DNA of 64,000 bases from Mollicutes bacterium (lineage in GTDB: Bacteria > Bacillota_I > Bacilli_A > RF39 > UBA660), in contig DUQO01000018.1 in assembly GCA_012837765.1 (NCBI GenBank), positions 16,014 through 80,013 on the forward strand. The letters are read 5' to 3'. The notes beneath the pieces are model-generated. The model saw only the letters and a program-made list of their open reading frames with translations, did not search any database and was not told where the DNA came from. Positions within the stretch are counted from its first letter, which is position 1; each line of letters starts with the position of its first letter. A program made the position numbers and the translations under genes. Positions 1,588-50,695 of this stretch are shown in pieces.

Positions 1588-1806
1588 TCACCTCTATAAA
1601 AAAATCCCTATATTGCAAAAACATAAGGACGAATGATCGCGGTACCACCTTAATTCATAGTAATTACTATGCACTCAAACTTTAACGCAGTAAACGGTCT
1701 TATGACAGCTAAAGGGCCATTTTCCGCAAGTTTTATACTCTTTTTCACCACCCAAGAGTTCTCTATGATAAACACTTGTTTCTCTTCCTTTTCAAAGCCT
1801 TTCAAT
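1588..1806 (-). ncRNA. T-box riboswitch leader upstream of dut-metG
   Basis: Minus strand carries AATTAAGGTGGTACCGCG (T-box consensus AAUUAGGGUGGUACCGCG, 1 mismatch) at 1639-1656. F-box-like CCGTTTAC at 1691-1698. AGAGA and GGUGA stem I elements present. Terminator hairpin TCCTTAT...ATAGGGA plus T7 at 1598-1629 sits immediately before the dut RBS. Confidence 0.7.
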
Positions 1807-2484: not shown

Positions 2485-5400
2485 TTAAATAATAGTTAAC
2501 AACTCAATAATATAAAATAACCAGTGTTTATCTAGTTTATTTATATTTAAAATTATTCTTAAGCGATTGCTTTTATATGTAACACTAAAGGCATTAGATA
2601 TGTCGCATGCTTTCATATATAAATCATTTACTTTCATATTTTTAGATGCTTCTTTAGAAAATATTAATTCAACATTTACTTTGGTTTGATTTACCTTTTC
2701 AATTCCCTTTTCTTTCGCTGCCTTTTCAAACCATTCTTCATACATATATATTTCCATTGATTCAGATACTTTTCCAAAACGATCCTCTAATTCACTCTTT
2801 ACTTTTAATAAACTCTCATAACTATCTATTTGATTTATTTTTTGATGAATTTCAATTTTTAAATCATCTTCTTTTACATAATTATCTGTAATATGAGTTT
2901 CTACATCTATTAAAGGTTTCTCTTCAAGTTCCTCATTTTTATCTGACAACTTAGTATTTCCCTTGATTCTATCTATTTCTTCTGCCAGCATCTTTAAATA
3001 TAACTCTATTCCAACACTATCGATAAAGCCGGCTTGTTCTCTACCTAATATATCTCCAGCTCCTCTTATTGATAAATCCCTGAGTGCTATAGAAAATCCA
3101 CTACCTAAAGCCGTAAATTCCTTAATTACGTTTAACCTCTTTTGTGCTGTTTCATTTAATATCTTGTTTTTGCTATACATTAAATATGCATAAGCTATTT
3201 TATTACTTCTTCCTACTCGTCCTCTAATTTGATATAACTGACTCAAGCCAAAATGATCTGCATCCATAATAATTAAAGTATTTACATTTGGAATATCAAT
3301 TCCTGTTTCTATTATTGTAGTGCATAGTAAAACATCATACTCGCCAGCAATAAATTTAATCATCGTATCTTCTATTTTTTGTTTTGGCATTTGCCCATGT
3401 GCAAATGTTACACGTGCATCAGGTACTAATTTTTTTATTTCAACTGCTCTATATTCAATATCAGCAACTTTATTATGCAATAAATATACTTGACCACCTC
3501 TTGATAATTCTTTATAAATAGCATCTTTAATTATGTAATCATTATATTCTAAAACATAAGTTTGAACTGGAAAACGGTTCATTGGTGGTGTTTCAATCAA
3601 AGACAAGTTTTTTATACCAAGCATTGATATTTGTAATGTCCTTGGAATAGGTGTTGCAGATAAGGTTAATACATCTATACTACTTTTGTACTCTTTAATT
3701 TTTTCTTTGTGAGTTACACCAAATCTTTGTTCCTCATCTATTACAAGCAATCCTAAATTATTAAATTTGACGTCTTTGCTGAGTAAGCGATGCGTCCCAA
3801 TTACAAAATCAATAGTTCCTTTGACAAGACCTTTTGTTATTTCTTTTACCTCTTTAGAAGTTGTAAATCTATTTAAAAGAGCTATGTTAACAGCATGATT
3901 TTTAAATCTTTCTATAGCATTTTCATAATGTTGATTAGATAGAATTGTTGTAGGACAAAGGAAAGCAACCTGCTTATTATCTTGTATTGCTTTAAAAATT
4001 GCCCTAAAAGCAACTTCTGTTTTTCCATAACCAACATCTCCACATAATAATCGGTCCATTGGAGAATCTTTTTCCATATCTTCTTTTATTTGAGTTACAG
4101 CTCTAAGTTGATCTCTTGTAGGTTCATATAAAAAGTCCTGTTCAAATTCTAATTGCTCCTTATTATCAGGTGAAAAAGCAAATCCTTTTTTAGCTTCTCT
4201 TTCAGCTGCTGTTTTAAGCAATTTACCAGCAATATCTTGAAGCTTGTTCTTGATGCGTACTTTTGTTTTTTGCCACTCTGTTCCACCTAATTTGTGTAAT
4301 GTTGGCGTTATTCCTTCATTTGATGAGTACTTCCAAATTAAATCAATTTTTTCAACCGGAATATATAATTTGTCATCATCTTTATATTTTATCTGTAAAT
4401 AGTCTTTCTTGACACCTTTTTTTACAAGAGTCTCTATACCACAGTATTTTCCTATTCCATGAATCTGATGAACAACATAGTCTCCTATATTAAGTTTGCT
4501 TAAATCTTTTATTTTTGTGCCATACTTGAATTGACTTTTATAAACTCCTTTAGACTTAATTTTCTTAAATAAGTCACATTCACCAATAACTACAATATCT
4601 TCAATAATAAAACCAGACGCTATTTCTTTTTTTATAACATTAATTTTATTATGCATAATATTATTTTTATCAGTTATGACACAATGTTGTTCTATAAAAA
4701 ATACAAAACTATCTATTTGATTTTTATTTTTTAAACATACAATGACTGTCATACCCAAAGATATATAGCTATTTAAATCATTATTTAGTCGTTCAACATC
4801 ACTTTCATATTTACGAATGGTTTTAATATTATACTTATCTATATATGCAAGTTTTACATCAGGTAAAATGTCATCTATATTCATCACATATAACTCATCT
4901 TCATAATTTATATCTTCAAAACGATTCATATATGATGTGTCTATATTATTTCCGTGCTCCTGATGATAATTAAAGATTTCCTCTTGAAGGTTTAAATAGG
5001 AATTTTTAAGTTGGTTATAATCTATATATACAATAATAGGATTATTGAGATAATCACTAATTTTACTTACATCACCATAAAGCGGCAAATACTTTTGGGC
5101 CTTTTTATCACTATCTACTTCATCTGCAATAAACTCATCAAAGGGATGAATGGTTATCTCATCAATCTTTGAAATTGATAATTGTGTATCTAAATCAAAA
5201 TAACGAATAGATTCAATTTCATCACCCCATAATTCTATTCTAATAGGATTTGATTCACTTATTGGAAAAACATCTACTATATAACCACGTGTACCCATTT
5301 CACCTGTTTTAGTAACTATCGTTTCGTTAGTATATCCTATTTTATATAAATCACTTATGAGCTTTTCCTTACCTATTGTCATACCAGATGACAATTTGAT

Positions 5401-12201: not shown

Positions 12202-12220
12202 ATTTTCACCTTTTAAAAAA

Positions 12221-12296
12221 AAGACGCACACAAAAAGGGATTGTTAAGGCTGCTTTCTTCCGAATCTGACCTGATTCCAATATTTTTGTTGCGCCA
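12221..12296 (-). ncRNA. ffs: Small (4.5S-type) SRP RNA
   Basis: Minus strand AGGUCAGAUUCGGAAGAAAGCAGCC matches the SRP domain IV consensus AGGUCAGGUCCGGAAGGAAGCAGCC, with a compensatory closing pair around the GGAA tetraloop. 5' GGCGCAACAAAAA pairs with 3' UUUUUGUGUGCGUC, followed by a U-run. Confidence 0.6.
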
Positions 12297-12301
12297 TATA
12301 T

Positions 12302-12330
12302 AATATACATTATTTTGCCTAAAAATACAA
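12302..12330 (-). promoter_or_regulatory. Promoter for the SRP RNA (TTGTAT-17-tgTATATT, extended -10)
   Basis: Read on the minus strand: TTGTATttttaggcaaaataatgTATATT, 7 nt upstream of the GGCGC RNA 5' end. Confidence 0.5.
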
Positions 12331-37493: not shown

Positions 37494-37518
37494 GAAAAAG
37501 AACTTATTAATAAGTTCT
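37490..37518 (-). terminator. Terminator overlapping the dnaN stop codon
   Basis: Perfect 20-bp palindrome AGAACTTATTAATAAGTTCT followed by a T5 run on the minus strand. Confidence 0.6.
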
Positions 37519-38631
37519 AACAGGTACTATTAATTGAATTAAACTTTCATCATTTAAAGCTTTAATTATAAATTGTTTAGTTTCATTTATTAATAACATT
37601 TTTATTTTTTCACTTTGGAAACTTTTTAAAGCTTCCATCATAAACCTTGCATTAAAAGAAATTTTTAAATTATTATTATTATTTTTTTCAACAATTATTC
37701 GTTCTTCTACTTTTCCAACTTGAAGTGTATCACATGAAGTAATCAATTCGTTGTTTGTAATTTTCATTTGAATTATATTTTTATCTGTATCACTTAATAA
37801 AGATGTTCTATCTATTATATTATATAACTCATCTAAATTAACTATTACTTCTATATTGTGTTCGGTTGGAATTAAAGTACTAATATTTGGAAAAGTACCA
37901 TTTAATAATCTAGATTGAAATAATAAATTATCAAATTTAAATATTATTTTATTATTAAAAATATGTAATTCAATCTTTTCATCTTCATTTAATAACTTAG
38001 ATAATTCAATTAAACTACTTTTTGGAATAACTATGTCTATATTATCATTAATGGAATTATCTAAGTTTATTTTTTTAACTGCTAATCTATAAGAATCAGT
38101 TGCTACAGCTTCTAAGATATCACCATCTATTTTTATATTTATACCAGTTAAAATTGGTCTGGATTCTTGCATTGAAGCTGCAAAAGATGTTTGATTAATA
38201 ATGTTAAGTAAATGTTTTTGCTCAAGAATAATTGGAGTTTTAATAAGATCAAGGTTATAATCTGGAAATTCAGTTGCATCTATTCCATTTAAGTTATATT
38301 CTGATGATGGAGTGGTAATTAAAATTTTTAAACCATCTGTTTCTAAATTAATTATTTCGTGAGGAATTTTTCTTGTTATATCAAGTATATATCTTCCTGG
38401 TATAACTATACTTCCAGTTTCATTTATCTCTTGGATATTACTTTTATCTATAAAAGTTTTAATAACAATACTTTCATCACTAGCTTCTAAATATAAACCA
38501 TTTTCATTTAGTGTAAATTTAATACCTGCTAAAACAGGAATAACATTTTTAGTTGATACAGCTCTTGCTACATAATTTAAATTACTTAACAAAATATCCT
38601 TTTTAATTTTTAATTTCATTTTTTCCTCCAT
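37507..38631 (-). CDS. dnaN: DNA polymerase III beta sliding clamp
   Basis: 374 aa immediately downstream of dnaA, beta-clamp three-domain length. Confidence 0.9.
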   Translation of the reverse strand: MEEKMKLKIKKDILLSNLNYVARAVSTKNVIPVLAGIKFTLNENGLYLEASDESIVIKTFIDKSNIQEINETGSIVIPGRYILDITRKIPHEIINLETDGLKILITTPSSEYNLNGIDATEFPDYNLDLIKTPIILEQKHLLNIINQTSFAASMQESRPILTGINIKIDGDILEAVATDSYRLAVKKINLDNSINDNIDIVIPKSSLIELSKLLNEDEKIELHIFNNKIIFKFDNLLFQSRLLNGTFPNISTLIPTEHNIEVIVNLDELYNIIDRTSLLSDTDKNIIQMKITNNELITSCDTLQVGKVEERIIVEKNNNNNLKISFNARFMMEALKSFQSEKIKMLLINETKQFIIKALNDESLIQLIVPVRTY

Positions 38632-38743
38632 TTTTATTATTATTTAAATAATATTATTATTATTATTGTTGTTGATAATGTTGATAAGATGTTTAAAGCT
38701 TTAAATTAAAGACTTTTAGAAATATAAAACTGTTTATAATTTG
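38632..38743. promoter_or_regulatory. oriC part between dnaA and dnaN: two abutting DnaA boxes plus an AT-rich unwinding region
   Basis: TGTTGATAA at 38670-38678 and again at 38679-38687 (TTATCAACA on the minus strand), flanked by (ATT)n runs. Confidence 0.7.
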
Positions 38744-40135
38744 TTATTTCAATTGTTGAATTAAATTGTCAATCATATTTTTTATTTCTTTATTACATTT
38801 TATATCACGTTCTATTTTATCGCAAGCATGAATTACAGTTGAATGATTTTTTCCACCAAACTCCATTCCTATTTTAATGAAAGATTCATCTGTTAATTTC
38901 CTTGATAAATACATAGCAACTTGTCTTGGATAAGAAATTTCATAAGTTCTTCGGTTTGATTTTAAATCATCAACCCTAACCTTATAAAATTCAGCTACGG
39001 TTTTTTGAATTCGATGAATATCATTTTTTAATGATAATGATTTGTTTAAATAATCTTTTAAAGCTTCAATTGCAACATCTAAATTGATTTTTGGAACATT
39101 AAACATAGTTGCATAAGCATATATTCTTGTTAAAGCTCCTTCTAATTGCCTAACATCAGCTTGAAAGTTATTAGCTACATATTCTAAAACGTCGTTTGTA
39201 ATTGTTTTACTTAAATCCCTGTTGATCATTTTCTTTTTCAAAATATTAATTCTAAGTTCATAATCAGGAGGGTAAATATTAACTTTAAGCCCCCAATTAA
39301 ATCTCGTTACAAGTCTTTCTTCCAATAGTTTTAAATCATCTGGTGAACGATCTGATGAAATAATAATTTGTTTATTATCATCATATAAATCATTAAATGT
39401 ATGGAAAAATTCTTGTTGTGATGCAGGAGCACCACTAAGCATTTGAATATCATCAATAATAAGAACATCAATATTTCTATATTTATCTTTAAAATACTCT
39501 ATATAATCATAATTAGTACCATTACTATCTCTTTTTGTTAAGTTAAGAAAATCAGATACAAATTTTTCGCTTGTTACATATAAAACCTTTTTATTTGTAT
39601 TTTTTACTATATAATTTCCAATAGCATGCATTAGATGTGTTTTACCAAGTCCACTATTTCCATATATAAATAAAGGATTATATGCTTTACCAGGGTTTTC
39701 TGCAACAGAAACCGCAGCAGCATGTGCAAAAAAGTTGCTTTCTCCTACAATAAAATTATCAAATATATATTTTGTATTTAAATTAGCTTGAATAGGATCA
39801 TTATATGGAACACCAATATTATCATTATTTGAAATTTGTTTCTTTTTAACATTTATTTCTTCTTCTAAAATAAATTGAAATTCAAAATTAGTTCCTGTTA
39901 CTTCATTAAATGTTTCGACTATTAAATCAATATAATTGTCATTCAAGTGTTTTTTATGAACATGCATAGGAACAATAACTTTTGCAATTCCATTATCCAA
40001 TTCATATAATTTAGTACCTTTAAACCAAGTATCAAAAGGAAGGGAAGTAAGCTTAGAACGAATAATGTTTAAAAAGTTTTGCCATATAGTATCTTTATCC
40101 ATTTTTATCACATCCTTGTTTACATCTAATATCAT
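38744..40135 (-). CDS. dnaA: Chromosomal replication initiator DnaA
   Basis: AAA+ motifs GNSGLGKTHL and box VII, C-terminal DNA-binding domain, 463 aa. Confidence 0.95.
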   Translation of the reverse strand: MILDVNKDVIKMDKDTIWQNFLNIIRSKLTSLPFDTWFKGTKLYELDNGIAKVIVPMHVHKKHLNDNYIDLIVETFNEVTGTNFEFQFILEEEINVKKKQISNNDNIGVPYNDPIQANLNTKYIFDNFIVGESNFFAHAAAVSVAENPGKAYNPLFIYGNSGLGKTHLMHAIGNYIVKNTNKKVLYVTSEKFVSDFLNLTKRDSNGTNYDYIEYFKDKYRNIDVLIIDDIQMLSGAPASQQEFFHTFNDLYDDNKQIIISSDRSPDDLKLLEERLVTRFNWGLKVNIYPPDYELRINILKKKMINRDLSKTITNDVLEYVANNFQADVRQLEGALTRIYAYATMFNVPKINLDVAIEALKDYLNKSLSLKNDIHRIQKTVAEFYKVRVDDLKSNRRTYEISYPRQVAMYLSRKLTDESFIKIGMEFGGKNHSTVIHACDKIERDIKCNKEIKNMIDNLIQQLK

Positions 40136-40507
40136 TTTACCTTATTTTATAACGTTTTGAACAAAAAAAGTGAAAAAACCTACAAAAAAAGAGTTGTTAA
40201 CATACTTATCAACACCAAAAACCTTATATTTGTAATAAAAAGAAGAGTTATCAACAAAATGTTGTTGATAATAACTTTTTTTATAATAAATTTGATTGTT
40301 GATATTGTTAATAACTCATCAAAACTTATAATAAAAGAAAAAAATTAAAAAAATATCAACAAAAAACCTAATTTATTTTGTCAATAATAAATATTTATCA
40401 ACAAGGAAAATTTTTTTTTAAAAAGAAATAATAAAATAAACCAATATCTTTTATTGACAATGAAGATGTGTTTAATTATAATGTTAATGAATGTGGAGGT
40501 GTATTAA
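40136..40507. promoter_or_regulatory. oriC part upstream of dnaA: cluster of DnaA boxes, plus the divergent dnaA and rpmH promoters
   Basis: TTATCAACA at 40206, 40248 and 40395. TGTTGATAA at 40263. One-mismatch boxes at 40297 and 40353. rpmH promoter TTGACA-17-TATAAT at 40455-40483. Confidence 0.8.
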
Positions 40508-40636
40508 ATGAAAAGACCTTTTCAACCAAATAAAAGAAAAGCTAAAAAGAAACATGGTTTTTTTGCTAGAAAAGAAGGAAAAGGAAAAATTCTAAAAAGA
40601 AGAAGAGTAAAAGGACGTAAAAGACTTTCTAAATAA
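40508..40636 (+). CDS. rpmH: 50S ribosomal protein L34
   Basis: My translation MKRPFQPNKRKAKKKHGFFARKEGKGKILKRRRVKGRKRLSK; RBS GGAGGTG. Below the ORF-track size cutoff. Confidence 0.85.
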   Translation: MKRPFQPNKRKAKKKHGFFARKEGKGKILKRRRVKGRKRLSK

Positions 40637-40674
40637 ATCCACAAGATGTGGCTTTTTTAGTATGAGGTGATGAA

Positions 40675-41013
40675 ATGAAAAAAATAAATATCATCCGCAA
40701 ATCAAAAGAGTTTGCAAAAATGATTAAAAATCGTCATTATTATAGTAATCGTTTTTTTATTATATATATAATGAAAAAGAGTGAAAAATATTTTCGTTTC
40801 GGCATCTCTATACCAAAAAAAGTAGGAAAAAGTGTAATTCGAAACAAAATTAAAAGACAAATAAAAAGCATTATCGATAATAATAAAAAATTTAATAGGG
40901 ATTTAGACTATGTTATAATAGTAAGGAAAGAAATATTAAATTTAAAATACAAGGAAATGGCTGAAAGTCTTAATTTGTTATTATCAAAAATTGATGGAGA
41001 GTGTAAAAAATGA
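40675..41013 (+). CDS. rnpA: RNase P protein component
   Basis: 112 aa basic protein after rpmH; pattern ...IRKSKEF... Confidence 0.85.
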   Translation: MKKINIIRKSKEFAKMIKNRHYYSNRFFIIYIMKKSEKYFRFGISIPKKVGKSVIRNKIKRQIKSIIDNNKKFNRDLDYVIIVRKEILNLKYKEMAESLNLLLSKIDGECKK

Positions 41014-41930
41014 GAAGAAACAAAATAATATTATTGATTTTAGTTTTATTTACTATAACAGGATGTACAACATATATAAAAGATGAAAACAACAAAGGAG
41101 TAAAATATGAATTAACAGGACAAAACTTACCATCAAATATTTTATGTAAACCAACTGATAAAGATGTAATTGAAATATATGAAAAGTATGAAATCGATAT
41201 TAAATCTCTACCAGAATGTAATGAATTTAAAATAAGTGATGGTGGATATGAAGGTTTATGGAATAGTGTTTTTGTAAAACCATTAGCTTGGTCAATATTA
41301 AAACTTGGATCTTTAATTAAAAATTATGGTTTATCTTTAATGATTATAGGATTTTTAATAAGATTAGCAATGTATCCTGTAACAAAAGGAACAGCTATGC
41401 AATCAGAAAAATTAGCGAAAGCTAAACCAGAGATGGAACAAATTGAAAAAAAATATAAAGATAAAACAAGTCAAGAAGATATGATGAAAAAAAGTCAAGA
41501 AATGATGGTTGTTTATCAAAAATATAAGATTAATCCATTATCAAGTTGTTTATTTGCTCTTCTACAATTACCATTATTCTTTGCTTTTTTAGAAGCTGTA
41601 AATAGAGTTCCAGCTATATTTGAAGGTAACCTTTTATTCTTTCAACTAGGAACAACTCCTTTAACTGCAATAATAAACAAAGGACAATTTCAATATTTAA
41701 TAATTGTTGCTTTACTTGCAATCGTAACAAAATATTCATTTAAATTAAATAAAACAGCAACAATTGATGCTGAAGCCAATAGACAAATGGATTTTATGAA
41801 CAAATTTTTAATGTTCTTTATTCCATCAGCATCGATGACTATGTCGACAGCTATTTCATTATATTGGATTACATCAAGTACTTTCACGATATTGCAAAAC
41901 ATTATTGTTAAAAGGAGAGAAGTAAAATGA
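41010..41930 (+). CDS. yidC: Membrane protein insertase YidC/SpoIIIJ (lipoprotein)
   Basis: Lipobox FTITGC, 5 TM core, rpmH-rnpA-yidC-jag synteny. Confidence 0.85.
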   Translation: MRRNKIILLILVLFTITGCTTYIKDENNKGVKYELTGQNLPSNILCKPTDKDVIEIYEKYEIDIKSLPECNEFKISDGGYEGLWNSVFVKPLAWSILKLGSLIKNYGLSLMIIGFLIRLAMYPVTKGTAMQSEKLAKAKPEMEQIEKKYKDKTSQEDMMKKSQEMMVVYQKYKINPLSSCLFALLQLPLFFAFLEAVNRVPAIFEGNLLFFQLGTTPLTAIINKGQFQYLIIVALLAIVTKYSFKLNKTATIDAEANRQMDFMNKFLMFFIPSASMTMSTAISLYWITSSTFTILQNIIVKRREVK

Positions 41931-42532
41931 ATATATACTCATATGAAGGAAGGAATATAGATGATGTAAAAGAAAAGGCATTATCAGAATTAGGAAAAAA
42001 TGAGGAAGATCTTTTTATTAATGTTATAGAAGATGAAGCTGGACTATTTAAAACAAAAAGAGTTAGATTAGAAATAATATCTAAAGAAGAATTGTTAGAA
42101 TATTTAAAAGGTACTTTAATTGATATAGTAAACAAAATGGGGATAGAGGCAAGAGTTGAGGCAAAAAAAAGAAAAGATAATTTTAAATTTACTCTTTTTT
42201 CAAATAATAATTCAATTCTTATTGGTAAGGGTGGCCGAACAATAGAAAGTTTACAAATAATTATAAGACATATTGTATCAAATAAAATCAAACTTCCTAT
42301 TAACATTACATTAGATGTTGAAGATTATAGGGAAAAGCAAATAAAAAAATTAGAATTTTTAGCTAGAAAAACAGCTAAAGAAGTATTAGCAACAGGAATA
42401 GATGTAAAATTAGATTCTATGAATTCATATGAAAGAAGAATAGTACATGAAGAGGTTGCCAAAATAGAAGGTGTTCATACAATTAGTGAAGGTGAAGAGC
42501 CAAATCGTTATGTAGTAATAAAAGTAAATTAA
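41927..42532 (+). CDS. khpB: Jag/KhpB RNA-binding protein (KH plus R3H)
   Basis: KH-like GKGGRTIESLQ and R3H YERRIVHEEV. Confidence 0.8.
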   Translation: MNIYSYEGRNIDDVKEKALSELGKNEEDLFINVIEDEAGLFKTKRVRLEIISKEELLEYLKGTLIDIVNKMGIEARVEAKKRKDNFKFTLFSNNNSILIGKGGRTIESLQIIIRHIVSNKIKLPINITLDVEDYREKQIKKLEFLARKTAKEVLATGIDVKLDSMNSYERRIVHEEVAKIEGVHTISEGEEPNRYVVIKVN

Positions 42533-47578: not shown

Positions 47579-48295
47579 ATGCTTCATTTTGTAATCTTTG
47601 ATGACAATGAGTTGATAAGAGAAAAAGTAAACAAAGTAATAACTAAATTAATGTTACCGACGGATATAGAATATAAAACGTTGGAATTTTCCAAATACAA
47701 TAAAAGTTTTGCTCAATTGATAGAAAGAAGAGGAGAAAAGAAAATATATATATTAGATATAGAAGTAGATTCTTACTCTGGTTTGGATGTTGCAAGAAAA
47801 ATAAGAGAGAGAGATTGGGAAAGCATTATAATAGTTTTAACAGCACATTATGAACTTGCATATGATGCCTTTAAAAATAGACTAATGTTGTTAGATTTTA
47901 TTTCAAAATTTGATAATTATGAACAAAATTTATATGATGTTTTAAAATTAGCATTAAAAGCATCACATGTTAAAAAACAATTTTCTTTTACTTCCAATAG
48001 AATGGCATATAGGGTTGATTACGATGATATTTTATATATTATCAAGGATACAGCAAAAAGAAATACAATTGTTAAAACTTTTTCTAAAGAATACCCTGTA
48101 TCACTTAACTTAAATGAAATAATGGCAATGTTGCCAGATAATTTTATTCAAACACATAGAGCATGTACAATTAATAGGGATAATGTAAAAACAATTGATT
48201 TTAAAGAAAACATTATAACATTTATTAATAATGAAAAAATATCAATGTTATCAAAAACATATAAGAAAGAAGTGAAAGAACATGTCTTTAGTTGA
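47579..48295 (+). CDS. LytTR-family response regulator (AgrA-like)
   Basis: Receiver with phospho-acceptor Asp in YILDIEVDS. C-terminal LytTR module ...ILYIIKDTAKRNTIV...QTHRACTIN. Confidence 0.8.
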   Translation: MLHFVIFDDNELIREKVNKVITKLMLPTDIEYKTLEFSKYNKSFAQLIERRGEKKIYILDIEVDSYSGLDVARKIRERDWESIIIVLTAHYELAYDAFKNRLMLLDFISKFDNYEQNLYDVLKLALKASHVKKQFSFTSNRMAYRVDYDDILYIIKDTAKRNTIVKTFSKEYPVSLNLNEIMAMLPDNFIQTHRACTINRDNVKTIDFKENIITFINNEKISMLSKTYKKEVKEHVFS

Positions 48296-49595
48296 TTTGA
48301 TTGGCCCCTCTTTTATCTTCAACATATTTCAACTAAAACTATCATCTGTAATAATAAAAGAAAAAATAGACTTTAAAAACGGAAAAAACATATTTTTATT
48401 TATACTTTTAATAGTAATGCTTTCCTTTTCAACTTTAGTTTTTAATAATTTTTTACGAGTGGTATTCAATTTCTTATGTTTGCTCTTTTTCTATTATTTT
48501 ATTCATAACAAAGGAATAAATGTAGCATTTATCGTTTCGTTTATTGCCTTCTTTTTATTTTTTATGTCAGAAATAATATTTTCTTCAATGTTATACTTTG
48601 TTAGTCAAATATGGGATATATCTATTGATATTGAAAAAAATACATTGCTATATTTAATATCAAATATATCAATTGGTTTTATGGCTATTATAATATATCG
48701 AATAAAAAAAATAAAACAAATTATTTTTACTTTGATTAAAAATTATGAAAAAACCAAATTTACTAAAACCATGTTGATAATACTAATGTTAATTTTTGTA
48801 TTAGTAAATAAAAATTTTTTATTGTTTGATTTTTATTTTGATTATCTTTTGAATCTATTTATTGTAGCGTTATTTTGCTTAATAGCTTATTTATTATTAA
48901 AGGAAAAAAATGCAAATGTGTCATTATCTAAAAAATATGATCAACTGTTTAGTTATTTAGAAAATTATGAAAAAGAACTTAATAAAAAAAGTATAATAAT
49001 TCATGAATTTAATAATCAACTAATTGCTATAAAAGGATTCAATGATAAGAAAAATAAGCATTTAGAACAATACCTAAATTCTATAATTAAAGATAATCAA
49101 AAGGGTGGAGAAAAGTTTCTTGATGATATGGAAAACCTTCCAAAGGGAGGATTAAAAGGATTAATTTATTATAAATTAGGATATCTGAAAGATGAAGGAA
49201 TTAATGTTGTAACTGATATTAGTTCAACTGTTAGAAAAAATGCCTTCGCTAAATTTGATCCTTCTTTATATAGAGATATTTTAAAAATAGTAGGTGTGTT
49301 GTTAGATAATGCTGTAGAGGCTGCAAAAGAATCAAAAGAAAAGCAAATATCATTAGAAATCTTTTGTACTAAAAATGATTTTAATATTGTATTATCTAAT
49401 ACCTTTTGTAATAATATTGATCTTGAAAAAATAGATGAATCAAAATATTCGACAAAAGGTAAGGATAGGGGATATGGACTTGCATTAGTAAAGCAAATAG
49501 TTAAAGATAATCCTAAATTGCAAGTTAAAAAAGAAATAATTAATAATTTCTTTGTTTCGACATTAACAATTGAACTAAAAAACACTTCTAATTAG
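48282..49595 (+). CDS. AgrC-like (HPK10) membrane sensor histidine kinase
   Basis: Six N-terminal TM helices, H-box IIIHEFNNQLIAIKG, GHKL motifs LLDNAVEA and GYGLALV. Confidence 0.7.
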   Translation: MSLVDLIGPSFIFNIFQLKLSSVIIKEKIDFKNGKNIFLFILLIVMLSFSTLVFNNFLRVVFNFLCLLFFYYFIHNKGINVAFIVSFIAFFLFFMSEIIFSSMLYFVSQIWDISIDIEKNTLLYLISNISIGFMAIIIYRIKKIKQIIFTLIKNYEKTKFTKTMLIILMLIFVLVNKNFLLFDFYFDYLLNLFIVALFCLIAYLLLKEKNANVSLSKKYDQLFSYLENYEKELNKKSIIIHEFNNQLIAIKGFNDKKNKHLEQYLNSIIKDNQKGGEKFLDDMENLPKGGLKGLIYYKLGYLKDEGINVVTDISSTVRKNAFAKFDPSLYRDILKIVGVLLDNAVEAAKESKEKQISLEIFCTKNDFNIVLSNTFCNNIDLEKIDESKYSTKGKDRGYGLALVKQIVKDNPKLQVKKEIINNFFVSTLTIELKNTSN

Positions 49596-49616: not shown

Positions 49617-49751
49617 TTATTCTATTATTGATTTTGGTGCTTCTGGTTCATCAAACCAAAAAAGAATGCATCCAACATGAGCAGCATTAGAAGCAAGTAA
49701 GCCAACTACTGCTGCAAAGCGTCCTATAATCTTTAGTGTCCTCTTTTTCAT
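49617..49751 (-). CDS. agrD: AgrD-like autoinducing peptide precursor (44 aa)
   Basis: My translation MKKRTLKIIGRFAAVVGLLASNAAHVGCILFWFDEPEAPKSIIE: amphipathic leader, conserved Cys, C-terminal DEPEAPK tail (compare S. aureus ...CDFIMDEVEVPKEL). RBS GGGAGGAATATT. Below the ORF-track cutoff. Confidence 0.7.
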   Translation of the reverse strand: MKKRTLKIIGRFAAVVGLLASNAAHVGCILFWFDEPEAPKSIIE

Positions 49752-49784
49752 AATATTCCTCCCTTCTCATTCTTTATCAAATCA

Positions 49785-50390
49785 TCATTTTTTTTGATGA
49801 TATGATTTGTAGTTGTTATATGGTAAATTTAGTAATCTATATGAAATGGGTATTATTAGTAAAGATTCAATTACTAATGAAAATATAAGGCAATTTGATA
49901 CTAAGTTATTGCTTATAAAAAATGACAACAAACCATAAAAAATAGCTGTCAAAGAAGAAAGTAATTTATATTTTTTTCTTCTTTTTTTATTTATTAGTGG
50001 TCGTTTATGAGTGTCTGCAGGAGCATATAAAATAATAATAATAAAGCAAATAATAAAAATTAATATTTTTATAAATAAATTTATTACTAATACTGAGGCT
50101 AAATAAGATGTAAAAATAAAAACACTACCAGATAAAAACAAACAAATTCTGCTATTAGGAGCATGCAATCCAAAAGCATATAATCTAATACCACTAAATA
50201 TAATTGTTAATAACAAAAATTCTTTTAAAAGATTTAGAAAAAAACTGACTGTAACAAAAAGTATTGTTTTTCCAAGTAACAAGTATATTGCTTCTAAACC
50301 ATAACTAATTTTTTCGATATGTATATTGTTGTATGAGTTGTCATTTTTTTCTATCACCATAAGTAACTTATTTATAACTGCATTTTTCAT
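49785..50390 (-). CDS. agrB: AgrB-like membrane peptidase/cyclase
   Basis: Catalytic region FGLHAPNSRICLF (His/Cys) and YAPADTHKRP, 201 aa polytopic membrane protein. Confidence 0.8.
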   Translation of the reverse strand: MKNAVINKLLMVIEKNDNSYNNIHIEKISYGLEAIYLLLGKTILFVTVSFFLNLLKEFLLLTIIFSGIRLYAFGLHAPNSRICLFLSGSVFIFTSYLASVLVINLFIKILIFIICFIIIILYAPADTHKRPLINKKRRKKYKLLSSLTAIFYGLLSFFISNNLVSNCLIFSLVIESLLIIPISYRLLNLPYNNYKSYHQKK

Positions 50391-50404: not shown

Positions 50405-50481
50405 ATTATAATAATTTTATCTTTTTTTCAAACATAATTTTTTTCAAGCGCTTGAAAAGTGTTAGTAAATGTTTGAAATGA
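50405..50481 (-). promoter_or_regulatory. agrB promoter with LytTR-type direct repeats
   Basis: 9-bp repeats TTGAAAAGT (50452-60) and TTGAAATGA (50473-81) separated by exactly 12 bp, upstream of a TTGAAA..TATAAT promoter with 15-16 bp spacing. Confidence 0.55.
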
Positions 50482-50695
50482 AGAAAAAGGGCCAATCAAA
50501 TATGTCGAAAGTCATTTTATGTCAAAAAAAAGGCGTTTTGTGTTTTGTTTAGTTTTTAAAAGTCTTAATTTATTAGAATATAATAGTAAATTAGTTATTA
50601 TGCGCAATAAATGTCACAATTTGTATTACTGCTTTTGTTGAAAAGCATAATTGTGTGAGTTATAGTGGTATTGTAAGGTTTTACTAGAAGGTGAG

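Follow-up and report, generated by a model that had tools for sequence, protein, structure and literature searches.

A predicted agrD gene and its agr-type quorum-sensing neighbourhood in an uncultured bacterium labelled Mollicutes

We find that the 44 codons at 49617-49751 of the window (the whole stretch of 64,000 nucleotides analysed here) are, judging from their sequence, a real agrD gene that encodes an AgrD-type precursor. The best overall explanation of the locus is that this gene very probably sits within a complete agr-type quorum-sensing module. A preliminary description had placed a 44-aa AgrD open reading frame at this position. The frame was borne out and belongs to the minus strand, and its identity as AgrD was upheld by the TIGR04223 family model, by an HMM built from relatives only, by gene context and by about 75 orthologous loci. 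Taken singly, the peptide adds little. It is an ordinary AgrD of a well-known family, uncharacterised and already labelled in GenBank, and thereby one more predicted autoinducing peptide (AIP) in a very large known family. What we consider mildly interesting is the lineage-wide picture, namely shared synteny and rings of 6-7 residues, all 76 of which have distinct sequences.

The agrD gene and its family

The gene, its Shine-Dalgarno sequence and the predicted parts of its product are the following.

49617-49751, minus strand: agrD, encoding a 44-aa precursor of a cyclic autoinducing peptide; stop codon at 49617-49619
49758-49765, minus strand: Shine-Dalgarno sequence of agrD, AAGGGAGG, read from the sequence
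49671-49751, minus strand: leader with possible exocyclic residues, aa 1-27, MKKRTLKIIGRFAAVVGLLASNAAHVG
49653-49670, minus strand: predicted thiolactone macrocycle C28-I-L-F-W-F33, Cys28 thiol to Phe33 carboxyl, delimited by the ruler rule described below
49620-49652, minus strand: C-terminal follower or recognition tail DEPEAPKSIIE, aa 34-44, predicted to be removed by AgrB

Translation of the minus strand yields exactly MKKRTLKIIGRFAAVVGLLASNAAHVGCILFWFDEPEAPKSIIE, 44 codons from ATG to TAA, and the plus strand of the same interval, on translation, has many stops. The ribosome-binding site had been described as good, and indeed a GGAGG core (49758-49762, within AAGGGAGG) precedes the ATG with a spacer of 6 nt; the Shine-Dalgarno sequence is unchanged in three other assemblies of the same species (L001, L003 and L004). 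The window has about 27% G+C and contains 580 ORFs of at least 20 aa. An HMM made from 70 agrB-adjacent AgrD-like peptides of other genomes, with the window and its nearest relative left out, matched agrD alone among these 580 ORFs (43.2 bits, E=9.8e-13), the next best ORF having E=2.5. Between agrD and its orthologue at locus L005, amino-acid identity is 68% and the nucleotide differences are distributed as 8/5/20 over codon positions 1/2/3. The same ORF has been predicted by gene callers on four other contigs.

Family models place the peptide among AgrD proteins in a specific sense. With the NCBIfam model TIGR04223 (AgrD family cyclic lactone autoinducer peptide) the score is 25.6 bits (cutoff 19, E=1e-5), and the match spans residues 3-42 of AgrD and positions 1-36 of the 38 in the model. 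PF05931 (Pfam 'Staphylococcal AgrD protein'), which the preliminary description had proposed as a check, was run and stayed below threshold (12.8 bits versus a gathering threshold of 22.7, E=0.12), with an alignment limited to residues 23-41. This is because the model is staphylococcal, and we do not take it as a refutation since both TIGR04223 and the relatives-only HMM pass. The peptide is best filed under the AgrD family in the sense of TIGR04223 and not of PF05931.

Position and layout point the same way. An AgrD is expected to be an ORF of roughly 40-55 aa beside agrB and co-oriented with it, and the ORF found here has 44 aa, lies on the same strand as agrB and directly adjoins it. An AgrD is also expected to have a central Cys or Ser followed by 4-5 mostly hydrophobic residues and an acidic tail with a conserved Pro at position 6; here these parts are Cys28, ILFWF and DEPEAP, in which Pro39 is tail residue 6.

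The gene had been thought to be unannotated, which is wrong for the public record. An exact-sequence look-up leads to GenBank entry HHT38000.1, titled 'MAG TPA: cyclic lactone autoinducer peptide [Mollicutes bacterium]', which has this very peptide on a contig of 91,404 bp; the name was given by PGAP. A word-indexed protein search with the 44-aa query recovered its own cluster alone, in keeping with the sensitivity limit of such searches for short queries. An exhaustive phmmer search over 1.8 billion representatives returned four genuine short relatives (P0130 and P0135-P0137), none of them from Clostridium. The long matches P0132-P0134 in that search were rejected as spurious, being repetitive proteins built from units like CISAWAEEP or WWFTSPHAP, and P0129 and P0131 were judged spurious from their many-stretch pattern alone.

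Parts of the peptide and the size of the ring

Of the three-part architecture proposed earlier (amphipathic leader, Cys-containing core and acidic DEPEAPK tail), the core and the tail stand, and the tail has the DEPxxP pattern seen in S. aureus AgrD-II and S. epidermidis AgrD. The amphipathicity of the leader is modest (muH 0.50, a value matched by 6% of shuffles). The leader has a net charge of +5 in its first 12 residues and then a 10-residue uncharged stretch, FAAVVGLLAS, features that bring it nearer to the leaders of C. perfringens and C. difficile than to staphylococcal ones. In other words, it looks as much like a signal peptide as like an amphipathic leader.

The ring had been given as C-I-L-F-W(-F), with its size left undecided between five and six residues. 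To delimit it we used a ruler rule drawn from ten AgrD precursors. For each of them a database entry with identical sequence and the expected name was found, and they were paired with the published macrocycles of Table 1 in PMC12312760. In all ten characterised AgrDs, whether the ring has 5 or 6 residues, the conserved Pro is residue 6 of the tail. Applied here, the rule therefore gives the ring C28-I-L-F-W-F33 and the tail DEPEAPKSIIE, so that the longer of the two proposed rings, CILFWF, is favoured and the five-residue CILFW is not. One of the ten references has a six-residue ring, C. acetobutylicum (CVLVTL, then YEPKMP), and the Cys-to-Pro distance of the AgrD studied here equals that of the C. 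acetobutylicum AgrD. We infer that a six-residue ring, with cleavage between Phe33 and Asp34, is probable, bearing in mind that the ruler set has a single six-ring reference. Rings of this size are already known for AIPs in clostridia (PMC8251862; PMC12312760).

The main competitor is an AgrD with the classical five-residue ring C-I-L-F-W, in which Phe33 would open a 12-residue tail, FDEPEAPKSIIE. Five residues is the ring size of most characterised AIPs, including nine of our ten references and nearly all entries of PMC12312760 Table 1, and an aromatic residue can open the tail, as F does in L. plantarum and Y in L. monocytogenes and C. acetobutylicum. However, the conserved Pro would then fall at tail position 7, as it does in none of the ten references, and for C. 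acetobutylicum, the sole reference with an equal Cys-to-Pro distance, a 6-ring was detected by MS. The relatives argue against the shorter ring as well: the residue preceding D varies as much as the rest of the ring (H=2.77 bits), in contrast to the invariant D and E, and four relatives have one further residue in the variable block. We regard the five-residue ring as unlikely.

How the predicted six-residue thiolactone is released from its leader bears on the final product. In clostridia, tail-less thiolactone AIPs undergo an S-to-N acyl shift that turns them into homodetic cyclopeptides (PMC8251862). Among the 76 family peptides, the residue directly before Cys is A or G in 73 and residue -3 is S or T in 66, and such a small-x-small motif is compatible with a cut that would leave a free N-terminal Cys. 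The AgrD of the window, with His at -3, is an exception to the family S/T (L005 has Tyr), and because of this His a tail-less product is less certain here than in the relatives. Alternatively, cleavage might occur at another small-x-small site, S-N-A before A, which would leave AHVG as an exocyclic tail.

Neighbouring genes, a candidate operator and the proposed mechanism

The elements around agrD on which the module reading draws are listed here.

49785-50390, minus strand: agrB, encoding a membrane cysteine endopeptidase/cyclase (PF04647), 201 aa in this assembly
49788-49795, minus strand: A8 homopolymer at the 3' end of agrB, from alignment with L001, L003 and L004
49575-49612, no strand: hairpin of 16 bp with a 6-nt loop and with A and T runs on its flanks, from a terminator scan
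48282-49595, plus strand: gene of an AgrC-like sensor histidine kinase, 437 aa; PF14501 HATPase_c_5 (GHKL), E=1.5e-12
47579-48295, plus strand: gene of an AgrA-like response regulator with receiver and LytTR domains; PF04397, E=5.7e-17, and PF00072, E=8e-8
50450-50478, minus strand: candidate LytTR-type operator, the direct repeat TTTCAAAC-N13-TTTCAAGC

The AgrB product scores 111.9 bits with PF04647 (cutoff 23, E=3.1e-32), and its GenBank entry is HHT38001.1, 'accessory regulator AgrB'. A search of the PDB with this protein found no solved homologue. His76 and Cys83, 7 residues apart, are invariant in 24 homologues; we take them to be the counterparts of the catalytic His77/Cys84 of S. aureus AgrB.

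The end of agrB lies 33 nt before the agrD ATG. The preliminary description was correct on this point for the present sequence, yet the gap is specific to this assembly, as it results from the A8 run. In L001, L003 and L004, three independent assemblies of this species, the run is A7, and there AgrB has 212 aa (versus 201) and the agrB TAA overlaps the agrD ATG by 1 nt. With two longer tails excepted, AgrB homologues stop 3-6 residues past a conserved NNYKxY, which makes the 201-aa form typical of the family; since the tail beyond this motif is not conserved, either length is plausible. The agrD gene is unaffected by the A8/A7 difference, and the conservative V16I is the sole change of AgrD in the sister assemblies.

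The kinase and regulator genes are convergent with agrBD. According to hydropathy, residues 36-206 of the kinase contain about six membrane segments, like those of a polytopic AgrC sensor. It matches the NCBIfam model NF046015 (AgrC) over its full length (E=3.9e-15), at 56 bits versus an equivalog cutoff of 500, and is recorded in GenBank as HHT37999.1, 'GHKL domain-containing protein'. The best NCBIfam match of the regulator is NF046049 (AgrA; E=2.9e-15), at 56.5 bits versus an equivalog cutoff of 400. Both proteins are far under these cutoffs, and we therefore call them AgrCA-like and not orthologues.

The hairpin covers the 21-nt gap between the convergent stop codons together with the end of the kinase gene, and it is unchanged in L001, L003 and L004. 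The scan that detected it found 3 terminators where 0.4 were expected. It is probably a bidirectional terminator that serves both the kinase gene and agrD. Near the agr locus, Rfam revealed no RNAIII-like or other regulatory RNA. Elsewhere in the window Rfam places a T-box leader (1622-1804, minus strand, 107.9 bits) and a small SRP RNA (12208-12305, minus strand, 61.5 bits); a search of the 64 kb for tRNA genes found none.

In operators bound by LytTR regulators such as AgrA and those of the ComE type, the repeats are characteristically spaced by 21-22 bp. As a criterion we used a pair of direct repeats of about 9 bp, separated by 12-13 bp and lying upstream of the agrBD promoter. The halves of the candidate operator (50478-50471 and 50457-50450) begin 21 bp apart, at -88 and -67 relative to the ATG of agrB. 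At the aligned position L005 has TTTTAAGC-N13-TTTTAAAC, with the same C-to-T change in both copies. We then considered the relatives with a motif-free scan for 9-mer direct repeats at spacings of 12 to 30, for which 77-78 upstream regions were long enough. Repeats matching in at least 8/9 positions at exactly 21 bp occur in 30-31 regions, compared to 7-15 at each other spacing. Within -100 to -78, at least 7/9 positions match at 21 bp in 26 regions, compared to 4-11 at other spacings. The enrichment for the specific operator motif is modest. An autoinduction loop acting through this candidate operator seems likely.

Several further features of the same upstream region are worth recording. The candidate operator falls within a nested inverted repeat (50416-50488) with arms at 50416-50435 and 50469-50488 and with a perfect 9+9 palindrome at 50441-50458; the promoter-proximal half is not kept in L005. 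The pair TTT(T/C)GACATA at 50501-50527 was rejected as an operator: L005 keeps one copy alone, and the 17-bp spacing is atypical. A sigma-70 promoter scan gave 34 sites versus 31.4 in shuffled sequence, none placed convincingly, and we claim no promoter because such sites are no commoner than in shuffles. In many of the loci L006-L084 there is a second cluster of direct repeats spaced by 21 bp, about -160 to -136 from agrB, for example AATGTCTGA-N12-AATGTCCGA in L060 and TGCACTAAA-N12-TGCACCAAA in L029. This cluster, of which no clear counterpart was seen in the window, is possibly another LytTR site or an operator of the divergent csp promoter.

Taking the complete agr-type module as the preferred explanation, we propose the following course of events. 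The agrB and agrD genes would be cotranscribed from the minus strand, the transcript ending at the hairpin common to the convergent kinase gene. The leader would bring AgrD to the membrane, where AgrB, by means of His76/Cys83, would cleave between Phe33 and Asp34, so that DEPEAPKSIIE is freed and Phe33 is kept as an acyl-enzyme thioester. Attack of the Cys28 thiol on this thioester would produce the six-residue thiolactone C-I-L-F-W-F. Some peptidase would then remove the leader. If it cuts directly before Cys28, an S-to-N shift powered by the free amine would lead to a homodetic cyclohexapeptide, as in clostridia; if it cuts after SNA, the product would be AHVG-[CILFWF]. The adjacent polytopic AgrC-like kinase would sense the peptide, a presumed receptor pairing, and would phosphorylate the LytTR regulator. 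The latter would probably bind the 21-bp-spaced repeat upstream of agrB, closing the autoinduction loop.

It could be argued that the module is inactive or decaying, with slippage at homopolymers of agrB and of the kinase gene generating agr-defective variants and with a peptide that is not a signal. The A8/A7 difference at the 3' end of agrB would fit such a history, and so would L001, where a 2-nt deletion in an A run (window 48698-48705) splits the kinase gene (6157-7468 of L001) into ORFs of 269 aa and 151 aa. Against it, all four ORFs are intact in the window, and L002 and three further members of the cluster have the full 437-aa kinase. The coverage of L001 is only 3.65x, so that its indel could be an error of assembly rather than a natural variant defective in agr. 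Nor do the other differences between assemblies speak for decay: the C-terminal tail of AgrB past NNYKxY is not conserved, both lengths being plausible, and AgrD varies by one conservative residue, V16I. Decay of the module thus appears improbable.

The locus in related genomes and among known systems

The window includes the chromosomal replication origin, as both the sign of the GC skew and gene orientation switch at about 40-41 kb. The features of this region are as follows.

37507-42532: origin region, from GC skew and gene orientation; intergenic part 40136-41009
37507-38631, minus strand: DnaN
38744-40135, minus strand: DnaA
41010-41930, plus strand: YidC
41927-42532, plus strand: Jag/KhpB

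To the right of the origin, agrB is the sole minus-strand ORF of at least 150 aa, and agrBD is therefore transcribed against replication. The segment 43249-47427 encodes SpoIID, an M23 peptidase, SpoIIID, MreB/Mbl and a family-4 glycosyltransferase. This gene content identifies the host as one of the walled low-G+C Bacilli, and the label 'Mollicutes' is misleading. The lineage is probably spore-forming. A connection between agr and sporulation would be no more than an analogy with clostridia (PMC8251862), joined to the location of spoIID, spoIIID and the M23 gene a few kb away.

A scan with an AgrB alignment, taking one genome per species, produced 80 loci (L005-L084; agrB at about position 4001 in most). 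Nearly all come from MAGs of uncultured organisms that carry the labels Bacilli, Tenericutes, Mollicutes or Firmicutes; the labels of a handful are clearly discordant (Muribaculaceae, Ignavibacteriales). The closest is from a 'Mollicutes bacterium' with 62% AgrB identity, and the nearest named relative comes from an isolate labelled AS08sgBPME. In 75 of the 80 loci, agrB is followed by an agrD-like short ORF. Although agrD has just 44 codons in an AT-rich window full of spurious ORFs and is sub-threshold for PF05931, the notion that it is a chance open frame and not a gene is effectively refuted by these orthologous ORFs, the relatives-only HMM (E=9.8e-13 versus 2.5 for the next best), the TIGR04223 score above cutoff, the strong and correctly spaced Shine-Dalgarno sequence and the bias of substitutions to third codon positions.

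The surroundings are shared too. As in the window, agrB is divergent from csp-hpf-secA in 65 of the 80 loci, and convergent kinase and regulator genes are found in essentially every related locus with enough flank. Because of this shared synteny, we consider the agr module a vertically inherited fixture of the lineage and not a mobile island.

The peptides of the 75 loci have a common layout, leader - G(S/T)x(A/G) - C - x5 - DE(P/E)x(C/M)PKS(L/M)I(K/ER). Together with that of the window there are 76 predicted rings, all of them different. The five positions that follow Cys have column entropies of 2.6-3.1 bits, compared to 0 for C, D, E and the second P, the last three being the same in all 71 aligned members. 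The block of variable residues is exactly five long, bounded by the invariant Cys on one side and the invariant D-E on the other. A hypervariable, presumed signal flanked by conserved, presumed processing elements is the classical AgrD pattern. By the ruler rule, the ring would have six residues in 72 of the 76 peptides and seven in 4. One more residue in the variable block before DEP is present in L043, L057, L061 and L080, and in L067 Ser replaces Cys.

Based on these observations, a broader reading might be entertained, which we put forward tentatively, as a possibility. According to it, the peptide would be one pherotype of a vertically inherited agr regulon at a fixed site, with six- (occasionally seven-) residue macrocycles in place of the classical five throughout the clade and a private ring in each species. 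In this regulon, agrCA-like genes would be convergent with agrBD, which would be divergent from csp-hpf-secA and, here, a few kb from oriC. Its bearers would be a deep, uncultured lineage of low-G+C Bacilli, labelled in GenBank as Mollicutes, Tenericutes or Bacilli, and the macrocycles may be homodetic cyclohexapeptides after an S-to-N shift. In the literature we found no description of such an agr regulon in this lineage, and a phylogenomics paper on uncultured Tenericutes does not mention agr, quorum sensing or sporulation.

The significance of the locus lies at this level. Some 75 orthologous loci and the window show that a whole uncultured gut/digester lineage of Bacilli keeps agr at one and the same place in the chromosome, the C-x5-DEP layout being invariant and the ring differing from species to species. 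The approximately 76 predicted hexapeptide signals could form a panel for synthesis and for work on signal specificity and cross-inhibition among organisms not yet cultivable. They also lend sequence-level support to the rule that AgrB cuts six residues before the conserved Pro, which might aid the prediction of AIP structures.

Among characterised systems, that of C. acetobutylicum (AIP [CVLVTL]) offers the closest parallel for the predicted ring. Its AgrD, like the one studied here, has Pro at +8 and +11 from Cys, implying a six-residue ring; in both cases agrBD and agrCA are separate transcription units in place of a single agrBDCA, and the host has sporulation genes. However, its tail starts with YEP and has 16 aa, compared to DEP and 11 aa here, and its leader is long (32 aa), hydrophilic and amphipathic, whereas here it is short and signal-peptide-like. 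Outside the motif, phmmer detects no similarity between the two AgrD sequences.

The staphylococcal systems share a different set of features with the locus. AgrD of S. aureus and S. epidermidis (AIP-II, GVNA[CSSLF]) is likewise a three-part precursor with Cys at residue 28 and a tail D-E-P-x-x-P, and it is accompanied by an AgrB with a His/Cys pair 7 residues apart and by a pair of the AgrC/AgrA type. On the other hand, the staphylococcal ring has five residues and here six are predicted, and the PF05931 threshold is not reached here. In staphylococci the genes form an agrBDCA operon, from which RNAIII diverges; here agrBD and the kinase and regulator genes converge, and Rfam gave no RNAIII-like family.

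Rc-AIP1 of Ruminiclostridium cellulolyticum and other clostridial cAIPs (PMC8251862) have a six-residue, aromatic-rich core (C+WFWSY), as predicted here. The small-x-small motif before Cys in most of the relatives is compatible with a tail-less, rearranging thiolactone of the same kind. The clostridial products were demonstrated by MS and synthesis (Molloy et al. 2021, PMC8251862), whereas the product proposed here is deduced from sequence. For the AgrD of the window, with His at -3, a four-residue exocyclic tail, AHVG, is an alternative.

Large-scale mining of gut metagenomes for AIP precursors has been carried out before (Nat Commun 2025, PMC11953309). The families reported there resemble the present one in being short AgrB-associated precursors from uncultured Firmicutes and in resting on bioinformatic prediction; theirs are human-associated.

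A last observation concerns the recognition tail. At its position 5, before the invariant Pro, C is found in 33 and M in 30 of the 71 aligned peptides, and the window has Ala. About half of the family tails therefore carry a second Cys, for instance those of L006-L011 (DEPECPKSLIK).
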